A stretch of DNA of 64,000 nucleotides from a virus. Both the position numbers and the translations under genes were made by a program. The notes under the pieces are model-generated. The model searched no databases, was not told where the DNA came from, and saw only the letters and a program-made list of their open reading frames with translations. Numbering within the stretch: position 1 is the stretch's first letter; the number at the start of each line of letters is the position of its first letter. Location of the stretch: positions 32,001-96,000 of IMG/VR virus record IMGVR_UViG_3300020733_000010; one strand, given 5' to 3'. Shown one piece after another: positions 9,520 to 12,191 of the stretch.

Positions 9520-10506
9520 TTATACTAGGTTTTCTTTAAAAATCAACCACGCATTTTCCCAATTCCATCGTTGACTACCTTCTAGTACTTTAGCTCTGTC
9601 TAATAATGAGGCGTTCATTACTGCAAATTTTAAGCTATTATGCATACAACCTGTAGCACCTTCATCAATTACATCTAATGGACCGGGTGCTGGGAATGCT
9701 GCAACAGGTGTTCCGCATGCCATTGCTTCAATCATTACTATACCAAATGTTTCCCAGACACTAGGGAACACGAACACATGTGCCATTCTATAATAATCTG
9801 CTAACTCATGTCCTGTTTTGAATCCAACGAATTCTACATCGGTATATCTGGCTTCATATTCTTTACGCATAGGTCCATCACCTACCATAATCTTACGAGC
9901 GCCTGGCATATCTAATTCAAAGAATTGTTCTAGGTTCTTTTCTTTACTAACACGACTAACACATACTAGAATCATTCGTTTGCTTAGTTCACTAACACCG
10001 GGATGAAATATTGTACGGTCAACACCTCGTGTCCAGGGTATAACTTCGCCCTTGAATCCTTTTTCTTTCAACTCACGTACCATTGTGTCAGTTGTAGTCA
10101 ATATCTTTTTTGACTTAGCATGAAACCACTTGACATACTTCCATGTAATAGATTCAGGTACGCCTAATATCTTTTTTATACCTTCAGGAAAACGGGTATG
10201 ATAAGCAGTATTATAGCTCCTGCCAACCAATGAAAGATACCTTCTAGCGTACAGACCGAGAGGACCCTCTGTGGCGATGTGGATATGATCCGGATTGATC
10301 TCCTTAAGTATCTTGCCCATCTTCCGGGGATAGGCAATCTTGACCTCGTTATACTTAGGGCAATCAATGTAGCCGAACCGCCCGGGATCAACATATACAA
10401 AGTTATAACCGTCCAAAAGCGCACACGCTTCAATGTTTTTATATGTTGTGACAACGCCATTAATCTGATCCTTTAAGTTATCAGTTACAATGAGTACAGT
10501 TTTCAT
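9520..10506 (-). CDS. GT4 glycosyltransferase, Agt / glycosyl-diacylglycerol synthase-like
   Basis: IVTD...QINGVVTT; HIATEGPLG; YHTRFPE; FVFPS.WETFGIVMIEAMACGTPV (E-X7-E). Confidence 0.85.
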   Translation of the reverse strand: MKTVLIVTDNLKDQINGVVTTYKNIEACALLDGYNFVYVDPGRFGYIDCPKYNEVKIAYPRKMGKILKEINPDHIHIATEGPLGLYARRYLSLVGRSYNTAYHTRFPEGIKKILGVPESITWKYVKWFHAKSKKILTTTDTMVRELKEKGFKGEVIPWTRGVDRTIFHPGVSELSKRMILVCVSRVSKEKNLEQFFELDMPGARKIMVGDGPMRKEYEARYTDVEFVGFKTGHELADYYRMAHVFVFPSVWETFGIVMIEAMACGTPVAAFPAPGPLDVIDEGATGCMHNSLKFAVMNASLLDRAKVLEGSQRWNWENAWLIFKENLV

Positions 10507-11390
10507 TGGTTTAATCTAAATCTAATATATTCTGTGATGTGGTCAGCTACATCAACTTGACAATACTTTTCAAACCCACTAAAGCCAGGGTTACTATTTG
10601 CTTCACATACTACAAACCCTGTTTCACTAAACAACAAGTCAACACCGGCAATGTTTAGTTCAAGTACTCGTGCTGTTTCTCTAGCAAGATATTCAATCTC
10701 TGGTGTAACTTCATAGTTACTGCCTGTGCCACCACCTGTGATGTTTGCTCTAAAGTCACCTTCTGGTGCTATTCTACGCATAGCACCAATCACTTTGCCA
10801 CCTACTACAAATACACGCAAGTCTTCACCTGGCTTAGTTCCCATGTATTCTTGCACAATCATTGTTTTCTTTGCACCAAGTGTATCAATGAACTCCATTA
10901 GTTTCTTATAGTCACGCTTGCGTTCACACAGATATACACCTTCGCCATAACTACCTGTAACAAGTTTAACAACACAAGGAAAACCTATATGATGCTCTAC
11001 TAATCCATCATCAATAGGATAACGAACCATCATTGTTTTGGGAATAGGAATTTTGTTTGCAGCAAGTATTTGACCTGTTCTTAGTTTATCTCTAACAACA
11101 TTGATTGGCTTGCTTGGGTTCACACAAGGTACACCCATTTCTTCAAATTGACGAATGATTGCCAACTGAAAAGGTAGTATACCTGCGCCCAATCTAACTA
11201 ATACTAAGTCAGGCTTTGTAAAGTCTTGACCTTTATACTTGATAGACTGATTTAAGTCTTGACTAACAACAATGTCAAAGTCATCAGGGTGACCAACCAT
11301 TGCTGATATATTTTTATTAGTGAAACTTTCAACCAATCGGTTAGTTTCGTATTCGTTTCGTTCTTGTTTAGATAATATTAATACTGTCAT
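10503..11390 (-). CDS. rimK: RimK-family ATP-grasp alpha-L-glutamate ligase
   Basis: DKL.T.Q.L...IPIPKT; GSYGEGVYL; VQEY...GEDLRVFVVGG; GDFRAN; GVDLL...EANSNPGF. Confidence 0.85.
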   Translation of the reverse strand: MTVLILSKQERNEYETNRLVESFTNKNISAMVGHPDDFDIVVSQDLNQSIKYKGQDFTKPDLVLVRLGAGILPFQLAIIRQFEEMGVPCVNPSKPINVVRDKLRTGQILAANKIPIPKTMMVRYPIDDGLVEHHIGFPCVVKLVTGSYGEGVYLCERKRDYKKLMEFIDTLGAKKTMIVQEYMGTKPGEDLRVFVVGGKVIGAMRRIAPEGDFRANITGGGTGSNYEVTPEIEYLARETARVLELNIAGVDLLFSETGFVVCEANSNPGFSGFEKYCQVDVADHITEYIRFRLNQ

Positions 11391-12141
11391 CTTTGTCTTT
11401 CGTCCAGGTTACAATTTCCCATGTACCGTCGAATTTTTCAACTAGTGCCGTGCAACTTTCTACCCAGTCACCATCATTCATGTACACTATATTATCTATC
11501 ATTTTTATTTCGGCATGATGAATATGTCCGCAGATTACACCATCGTATCCTCGTTTTTTGCAGTATCCTGCAAGGTTTCTTTCAAACTGGAAAATGAAGT
11601 CAATCGCTTTTTTGACCTTATGCTTAAGGAAACGGCTAAGGCTCCAGTACCCAAAACCAAGCCTATGGCGAATCCAATTGAATTTGCTATTGAGTGCAAG
11701 GATGAAATCATATGCTTTGTCACCTAAAAAACTTAACCACGGCGCTAATCGTGTAATGCCATCAAACAAATCACCATGTACAACTAGATAATGATTGCCA
11801 TCTAATCCTATATGTTCAATCTGATTAACAACTTCAACATTACCAAAGTTGATATTGTATGGCATTAGTGGGCGCAAAAACTCATCGTGATTTCCAGCAA
11901 TGTATATAACACGAGTGCCACGCTTACTATGCCCAAGAATACGGCGAACGACATTAGTATGGCTTTGTTTCCATCGCCATTTGTTTTGTTGAATCTTCCA
12001 AACATCTAGTATGTCTCCTACCAGATAAAGTGTCTCGCAGTAGTTGTGTTTGAGAAAATTATTTAGTTTTTCTGCTTGTGAGTCTTTAGTGCCTAAATGT
12101 ACATCACTGATAAAGATGCTGCGATAAGTTTTCTGTGTCAT
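11368..12141 (-). CDS. plcP: LpxH-like calcineurin metallophosphoesterase of the PlcP (phospholipase C) type
   Basis: SDVHLG, LVGDILD, GNHD, VVHGD, GHIHH, MNDGDWVESCTALVE; in an operon with an Agt-like GT4 and preceded by a Pho box. Confidence 0.75.
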   Translation of the reverse strand: MTQKTYRSIFISDVHLGTKDSQAEKLNNFLKHNYCETLYLVGDILDVWKIQQNKWRWKQSHTNVVRRILGHSKRGTRVIYIAGNHDEFLRPLMPYNINFGNVEVVNQIEHIGLDGNHYLVVHGDLFDGITRLAPWLSFLGDKAYDFILALNSKFNWIRHRLGFGYWSLSRFLKHKVKKAIDFIFQFERNLAGYCKKRGYDGVICGHIHHAEIKMIDNIVYMNDGDWVESCTALVEKFDGTWEIVTWTKDKDDSINII

Positions 12142-12173
12142 CTACTATTTATAGATTTTAGGTTTTACCTAAT

Positions 12174-12191
12174 ATGACAATCATGTGACAG
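12174..12191 (-). promoter_or_regulatory. Pho box (PhoB binding site)
   Basis: Minus strand CTGTCAC-ATGA-TTGTCAT matches the 7-4-7 consensus CTGTCAT-N4-CTGTCAC; 32 nt upstream of the plcP ATG. Confidence 0.7.

Follow-up and report, generated by a model that had tools for sequence, protein, structure and literature searches.

A jumbo-phage plcP-rimK-agt cassette related to bacterial lipid-remodeling operons, and the Pho-box-like repeat conserved upstream of its first gene

Organization of the Locus

The stretch of DNA analyzed here, hereafter the window, comprises 64,000 nucleotides (positions 32,001 to 96,000) of the virus record IMGVR_UViG_3300020733_000010 from IMG/VR, a 178-kb record with an estimated completeness of 51% that originates from a T4-like jumbo phage and whose complete relatives measure 349-525 kb. 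This report concerns a cassette of three genes on its minus strand, plcP-rimK-agt, of which the two outer members are orthologous to the enzyme pair used by bacteria for lipid remodeling. The first gene, plcP (11368-12141), codes for a calcineurin-like metallophosphoesterase of 257 aa that is assigned below to the PlcP-type phospholipases C. It is followed by a gene for an alpha-L-glutamate ligase of the RimK family of ATP-grasp enzymes (rimK, 10503-11390, 295 aa) and by an agt-like gene for a GT4 glycosyltransferase of 328 aa, a predicted diacylglycerol glycosyltransferase (9520-10506). The first-pass annotation of this DNA had described the three genes as tightly joined, and both junctions bear this out: the ATG of rimK lies 23 nt inside plcP, and rimK and the GT4 gene share an ATGA overlap.

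Upstream of plcP, and on the same strand, lies a Pho-box-like element of the 7-4-7 type, CTGTCAC-ATGA-TTGTCAT (12174-12191), made of two 7-bp direct repeats that are separated by a 4-bp spacer and thus recur with a period of 11 bp. Read 5' to 3' on the minus strand, the box is followed by 20 nt, by the element TATAAATA (12146-12153), which is both T4-late-type and -10-like, by the four nucleotides GTAG, and by the plcP ATG at 12141. The distance from box to ATG is exactly 32 nt, as had been noted in the first reading of the sequence, and the TAAATA element announced there ahead of plcP is likewise present within TATAAATA. The ATGA spacer of the box contains the TGA stop codon of an upstream open reading frame (ORF) of 90 aa (12181-12453). 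The 3' limit of the cassette is marked by the next TATAAATA element (9517-9524, minus strand), which overlaps the stop codon of the GT4 gene and stands 4 nt ahead of the ATG of a 111-aa ORF (9177-9512), that is, at a TAAATA-N4-ATG site. The DNA around the cassette is that of a phage, with genes for virion proteins, for a nuclease resembling gp46 and for a baseplate wedge protein of the T4 type (813 bits).

Identity of the Metallophosphoesterase

The plcP product matches the Pfam family Metallophos at 9.5e-11, and its metal-binding motifs (DVH, GD, GNHDE, HGD, and GHIHH) are all intact and align with those of bacterial PlcP-like proteins. Bacterial PlcPs measure 280-295 aa and have a longer C-terminal tail than the protein of the window; where rimK is present PlcP lacks a non-conserved basic tail and is shorter for that reason, and it retains the whole catalytic domain. 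The window protein is 56% identical (E 4e-95) to a Pseudomonas aeruginosa protein in the PA3219 position and 47.6% identical to the sole homolog on a chromosome-sized Sinorhizobium meliloti record, and characterized PlcPs share just 46-47% identity with one another (bioRxiv 10.1101/2021.04.14.439775). The P. aeruginosa gene was taken as PA3219 from synteny together with the published description: the record in PLSDB reads azoR3, followed further on by a "UDP-2,3-diacylglucosamine diphosphatase," a "glycosyltransferase" and cyaB, which is the neighborhood described for PA3219 (PlcP) and PA3218 (Agt1) (Jones et al., bioRxiv 10.1101/2021.04.14.439775). In a maximum-likelihood tree, the 63 phage sequences group together as a single clade (support 99) within the alphaproteobacterial PlcP radiation, and three true LpxH proteins are split off by a branch with 100% support and a length of about 10 substitutions per site.

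The competing identification is LpxH, the UDP-2,3-diacylglucosamine diphosphatase, with which the cassette would modify lipid A or lipopolysaccharide (LPS). LpxH belongs to the same superfamily of calcineurin-like metallophosphoesterases and has a similar length, which is the origin of the database annotation of the phage gene: the source annotations say "LpxH," the top NCBIfam matches are LpxH models, and surveys of viral auxiliary metabolic genes file lpxH under LPS biosynthesis. However, the two LpxH equivalog models give the window protein 48.6 and 36.2 bits, far below their curated cut-offs of 134 and 190, and the solved LpxH structures in the PDB match it only weakly, with an E value of about 0.002. 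The alignment has GNHDE throughout the PlcP-like group at the place where LpxH has GNRD, and the two groups stand apart in the tree. Genomic context separates them as well. Three gammaproteobacterial genomes with a homolog of the phage gene each possess, in addition, a separate true LpxH (262-344 bits), whereas the PlcP-like paralog, scored in two of these genomes, reaches 29-35 bits; in two alphaproteobacterial genomes, from the group that holds the nearest homologs, the PlcP-like gene occurs without a true LpxH. An LpxH function for the phage enzyme is accordingly very improbable, and the evidence points to a PlcP ortholog, the identity that had been proposed for it at the outset.

The Glycosyltransferase and the RimK-Family Ligase

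The GT4 product carries the Pfam domains Glyco_transf_4 and Glycos_transf_1 and, along its entire length, shares 40% identity (E 2e-84) with the P. aeruginosa glycosyltransferase beside plcP, Agt1/PA3218, an enzyme that yields monoglucosyldiacylglycerol (MGDG) when expressed in E. coli (bioRxiv 10.1101/2021.04.14.439775). The SAR11 enzyme PB7211_960 was likewise studied by expression in E. coli and mass spectrometry of the lipids (PMC4796936). In all of five alphaproteobacterial genomes, the GT4 gene adjacent to plcP encodes the unique best match of the phage GT4, with 226-257 bits against at most 102 bits for the next GT4. The choice of an Agt-type enzyme over other GT4 proteins, made earlier from the sequence of the window, is thus supported by unique orthology to the plcP-linked GT4 as well as by the similarity to Agt1, and the phage enzyme is predicted to glycosylate diacylglycerol.

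The bacterial order plcP then GT4 recurs in phages. In bacteria, plcP-agt preceded by a Pho box is known as the "type 2" arrangement (Sebastian et al., PMC4796936). The bacterial PlcP-Agt systems used for comparison were those of S. meliloti (SMc00171), Phaeobacter (MED193_17359), SAR11 (PB7211_983/PB7211_960) and P. aeruginosa (PA3219/PA3218). With these operons the phage cassette shares orthologous enzymes, the order of plcP and agt, and an upstream Pho box of like kind. It differs from them in being located on a jumbo phage, in the insertion of rimK between the two genes, and in a promoter region that joins the box to a T4-late-type TAAATA separated from the ATG by 4 nt.

The middle gene appears to be of another nature. 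The Pfam domains RimK and Rimk_N span the full length of its product, which scores 224 bits with TIGR00768, above the family cut-off of 143, and remains below the cut-off of the S6-ligase equivalog NF007764 (170.9 bits vs. 331). No rimK was found in 7 related phage genomes, 4 of them complete, and on another jumbo-phage contig (L140) the gene neighbors an eIF-1a-like gene, with no lipid gene anywhere near it. The initial proposal that rimK is part of the lipid-remodeling system therefore does not hold, and a general functional partnership was rejected on the grounds that the gene is missing or relocated in relatives. The rimK gene is probably a co-transcribed passenger, inserted specifically in the lineage of the window; to assign it a role in the modification of a glucuronosyl lipid would be pure speculation.

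Prevalence and Gene Content in Related Phages

The phage plcP is widespread. At least 8000 proteins match the window PlcP at E ≤0.001, the best 120 of which are 79-88% identical to it, and at least 596 viral stretches of IMG/VR were confirmed to carry this plcP, several of them on contigs of 320-525 kb. Its company is variable. Among 51 distinct loci with enough sequence downstream of plcP, GT4 lies directly downstream in 23, rimK stands between plcP and GT4 in 7, and neither gene accompanies plcP in 28. Two complete genomes (G010 and G015) have plcP and no GT4 anywhere, and in a third (G011) GT4 is located 100 kb from plcP. These counts define plcP as the core of the module, GT4 as a frequent companion and rimK as a lineage insertion. 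The plcP-agt pairing presented in the first-pass annotation is hence real and recurrent, yet optional. Since many phages keep plcP alone, selection can be argued to act on the release of phosphorus rather than on the making of glycolipid.

Some relatives carry further genes of interest near plcP. In one of them (L003), a gene for a fatty-acid desaturase (4475-5185) and a rubrerythrin-rubredoxin pair (7084-7676) lie a few kb upstream of plcP, as additional lipid or redox auxiliary genes. On a 379-kb metagenomic phage-like contig (L006), genes for CsgF, CsgG, a FecR-like protein and curlin repeats are found just upstream of plcP-GT4 (1859-7236); with the Csg genes, curli secretion is represented in the gene content of a jumbo phage.

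A Conserved Pho-Box-Like Repeat Upstream of plcP

Of the 14 positions of the proteobacterial Pho consensus CTGTCAT-N4-CTGTCAT, 12 are matched by the box of the window. The exact pattern TGTCAY-N5-TGTCAY has a single occurrence in the whole 178-kb record, at plcP, where about 0.1 exact matches per record are expected by an estimate from base composition. Conservation was counted in 62 distinct 100-nt regions upstream of phage plcP genes. A perfect TGT(A/C)AY-N5-TGT(A/C)AY is present in 24 of these and a repeat with at most one mismatch in 48, as compared with 0.0016 and 0.0072, respectively, per 100 nt elsewhere in these loci, an enrichment of about 240-fold in these homologous upstream regions. 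The sequences that flank the box differ entirely between phage groups, being terminator hairpins in some and the tail end of another upstream gene in others, so the repeat is conserved beyond its surroundings. In complete relatives of 349-525 kb, the perfect box occurs just once or twice per genome, always with a copy at plcP. Conservation of the box in related phages, a point on which the first-pass annotation had to be checked, is thereby confirmed for most of them, with the box in helical phase with TAAATA. Bacterial plcP homologs show the same association, since TGTCAY repeats are found upstream in 8 of 30, vs. 0.03 expected, and the P. aeruginosa plcP is preceded by four phased half-sites.

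The few additional boxes are of two kinds. In G010 and G011, a second perfect box, TTGTCAC-ATCA-TTGTCAC, is followed after 10 nt by TTAAATA and then by a leader of about 50 nt that contains a hairpin and AAGGAG. The gene behind it (L131:790-1437, minus strand, with a homologous ORF in L133) codes for an acidic protein of 215-217 aa that is rich in Ala, Val and Glu and is located beside plcP in G010 and directly after GT4 in G011; the protein matches no Pfam family, and no homolog of it was found in the 178-kb record of the window. As for TGTAAY boxes, only two extra matches occur elsewhere in the relatives, one within a coding region and the other ahead of an ORF of 147 aa that lacks an annotation. 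Natural Pho boxes of E. coli include TGTAAT half-sites, as at phoE, and the TGTAAY class of phage boxes may be of the PhoB type too. No OmpR/PhoB-type DNA-binding domain (Trans_reg_C) was detected in the five phage genomes searched, from which it follows that a host factor would be needed to read the box.

Might such a repeat be a chance match devoid of function? A pattern that tolerates one mismatch is expected 0.75 times per window, which would accommodate a fortuitous hit. Against this stand its being the sole exact match in 178 kb, at the very place predicted for it, the enrichment upstream of plcP in relatives whose upstream regions are not recent copies of one sequence, given their completely different flanks, and the quantized spacing described below. 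A fortuitous origin is therefore hardly credible.

Promoter Geometry

In the 178-kb record, TAAATA-N4-5-ATG is found ahead of 23 ORFs (≥60 aa), with a sharp peak in the spacing, and several of these genes are also devoid of a Shine-Dalgarno sequence. This arrangement suggests a late promoter class of leaderless type, and the T4-late geometry suggests that transcripts would start at the ATG or next to it. The element is likewise usual at plcP, as TAAATA lies 3-9 nt before the ATG in 50 of 64 distinct plcP upstream regions.

The gap between box and TAAATA falls into two classes that are one helical turn apart. It amounts to 11 nt in 15 sequences, and this class reproduces the classical layout of PhoB promoters, in which the box takes the place of the -35 element at about 10 bp from the -10 element. 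It amounts to 21-22 nt in nine perfect members, the window among them, as well as in a large group with one mismatch (ATTTAAY-N4-CTGTAAY). Unlike in E. coli-type pho promoters, the box of the latter class is thus placed one helical turn further upstream. No sigma-70 pair of -35 and -10 elements was predicted upstream of plcP.

Hints of the Host

A two-piece (permuted) transfer-messenger RNA (tmRNA) is encoded on the minus strand of the window at 16969-17301, where the Rfam models beta_tmRNA (RF01850) and tmRNA_permuted (RF04321) score 106 bits over the full length and 97 bits, respectively; ARAGORN did not report it. A proteobacterial host is suggested both by this Betaproteobacteria-type tmRNA and by the TGTCAY box.

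The closest "bacterial" matches (70-80% identity) come from metagenome-assembled genomes (MAGs) of Haliscomenobacter and Bacteroidia, which were considered as hosts and dismissed, as their sequences fall inside the phage clade. In the Haliscomenobacter MAG, one contig (L087) bears a plcP-GT4 pair 80% and 66% identical to that of the window, and another (L143, G020:C90) carries a phage-like beta_tmRNA of 110 bits. Given the nesting in the phage clade and the phage-like tmRNA on another contig, the Bacteroidota MAG contigs are probably jumbo-phage contigs that were binned with bacterial DNA.

Other Features of the Window

Three further features of the window were recorded. A single ORF of 5412 aa (31774-48012, minus strand) adjoins the baseplate wedge gene. 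An ORF of 393 aa on the plus strand (3363-4544) resembles phage ferrochelatase families in its N-terminal half and 2OG-Fe(II) oxygenases in its C-terminal half, and appears to be a ferrochelatase/oxygenase fusion. Finally, a tRNA with the anticodon CTA, of the amber suppressor type, is encoded at 13498-13574 on the minus strand (Rfam tRNA, 46 bits) and is labeled tRNA-Pyl by ARAGORN.

A Candidate Route from Host Membrane to Phage DNA

The reading that we favor, with a probability of about 0.62, is that the plcP-agt cassette frees phosphorus from the host membrane and refills the membrane with glycolipid, with host PhoB driving expression through the box, TAAATA providing late expression and rimK traveling along as a passenger. 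The cassette would derive from a proteobacterial plcP-agt operon for lipid remodeling under phosphate starvation. By orthology, PlcP would cleave glycerophospholipids of the host into diacylglycerol and the phosphorylated head group, thereby releasing membrane phosphorus, and the GT4 (Agt) would glycosylate the diacylglycerol to a phosphorus-free glycolipid, MGDG and/or glucuronosyldiacylglycerol (GADG), so that the membrane would be refilled. The phosphorylated form of PhoB in a proteobacterial host would read the box, with the proposed consequence that expression rises in phosphate-starved cells, and the TAAATA element would give late expression regardless of phosphate. The freed phosphorus would then support the synthesis of phage DNA. 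Binding of PhoB, phosphate-dependent induction and the lipid chemistry are what we infer from the sequence.

Several observations weigh against this interpretation. The main weakness for the window is the distance of 21-22 nt between its box and TAAATA, in place of the approximately 10 nt of classical PhoB promoters, and no good -10 hexamer was found at the classical distance from the box. Moreover, with TAAATA just 4 nt from the ATG, the plcP transcript would be leaderless. The counts of boxes among relatives are not independent events, because the upstream regions are homologous. Many relatives have TGTAAY rather than TGTCAY half-sites, and about a fifth of the related upstream regions show no box. 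As for other Pho-type genes, pstS was found neither in the 178-kb record nor in seven relatives, and phoH, likewise not found in the 178-kb record, is present in five relatives with no perfect box at it. Refilling of the membrane would not be general to this phage group, since GT4 is missing from over half of the related loci. The host itself is hinted at, as one of betaproteobacterial type, only by the two-piece tmRNA.

Part of these observations would be accommodated if the genes were true plcP-agt orthologs and the repeat were not a PhoB site, being instead the target of another host factor or an unrecognized phage factor, or belonging to a phage promoter. The cassette would then be a late set for reshaping the envelope, serving superinfection exclusion, altered display of receptors, or membrane stability during the long cycle of a jumbo phage. 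TAAATA-N4-5-ATG is indeed a general gene-start signal in this record, the box of the window is displaced by one turn, TGTAAY variants are common, and no other Pho-type gene of these phages bears a box; lipid remodeling is also described as altering phage adsorption in bacteria (PMC9938194, PMC9804370). Nevertheless, the box agrees closely with the proteobacterial Pho consensus, and its scarcity, one or two per genome of 350-525 kb, indicates that it is not a promoter class. In addition, the bacterial orthologs of plcP are members of the Pho regulon with a like box, and no phage-encoded winged-helix regulator was found in the five genomes. We hold this alternative to be unlikely, though deserving of attention. 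It is considerably less plausible, and improbable in our view, that PlcP mainly attacks the phospholipids of the inner membrane late in infection as an aid to lysis or host shut-off, with any phosphorus economy being incidental. A late-type element directly ahead of plcP and the absence of GT4 beside plcP in 28 of the 51 loci, and altogether from G010 and G015, would suit such a role. Against it stand the conservation of a Pho-box-type repeat and the retention of GT4 in 45% of the loci in the bacterial gene order, and PlcP itself is well conserved (79-88% among the best 120 matches), with the intact architecture of a cytoplasmic enzyme, like the bacterial enzyme of housekeeping and stress.

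The favored reading, in which host PhoB governs a membrane-stripping cassette, can be extended beyond the window. Jumbo phages might run a small Pho regulon via host PhoB, with a box phased to a leaderless late TAAATA promoter that controls plcP(-agt) and, in certain genomes, also the gene of the acidic protein, and the stripping of membrane phosphorus might be widespread in phosphate-poor waters. We offer this extension tentatively and would sooner expect it to fail than to hold. If true, a nutrient sensor of the host would gate a class of promoters that is normally read with phage-directed transcription.

Comparison with Other Phage Phosphorus Genes

Both halves of the proposed system are already known separately, namely the plcP-agt system in bacteria and Pho-controlled phage genes in cyanophages. 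The auxiliary genes pstS and phoA of cyanophages are reportedly induced via host PhoBR, a finding attributed to Zeng and Chisholm in 2012. Like them, the cassette would consist of phage-borne phosphorus-stress genes that are thought to be switched on by the phosphate-sensing two-component system of the host via Pho boxes. On the one hand, the cyanophage genes import or release external phosphate, whereas the phage plcP module would mine the membrane of the host. On the other hand, the cyanobacterial box is PyTTAAPyPy(T/A), whereas that of the jumbo phages is of the proteobacterial TGTCAY type, and no pstS was found with it.

A second point of comparison is the Pelagibacter phage Mosig EXVC030M. 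Its gene Mosig_00120, annotated as a "putative UDP-2,3-diacylglucosamine hydrolase," is another phage-borne member of the PlcP clade that bears an LpxH-type label, and its product is 48% identical to the window PlcP. It is also found in a phosphate context, because it lies divergent from a phage pstS. Mosig differs from the jumbo phages in being a cultured pelagiphage of 141 kb, with neither GT4 nor rimK adjacent to the gene and no TGTCAY box. The 150-nt intergenic region of Mosig (L001 6717-6868) contains phased TGTTAA-N5-TGTTAA repeats on the pstS side.

Significance

In the literature searched, no published work was found that joins plcP with phages or with auxiliary metabolic genes, which agrees with the earlier impression that remodeling of the plcP-agt type had not been described for a phage. 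Viral surveys speak of lpxH instead. One of them ranks lpxH among the commonest LPS-biosynthesis genes of surface and subsurface oligotrophic water, another has it in the annotation table of metatranscripts from the viral fraction of Lake Baikal, and a survey devoted to the phosphorus genes of phages names neither a phospholipase nor any lipid gene.

The phosphorus genes known from phages (pstS, phoA, and phoH) either act on external phosphate or are of uncertain function. A phage plcP-agt cassette would add another strategy, in which the phospholipids of the host membrane become a source of phosphorus for phage DNA, the demand for which is large in a genome of 350 kb. Its conserved box would provide a testable case of a host two-component regulator that controls a jumbo-phage promoter. 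Because surveys count the gene as a lipid A gene, the viral share in phosphorus cycling and in the glycolipid pools of phosphate-poor waters may be misread. If the extension to a phage Pho regulon is true, a widespread and unrecognized phosphorus route would exist in these waters, hidden under the label "lpxH, LPS biosynthesis."

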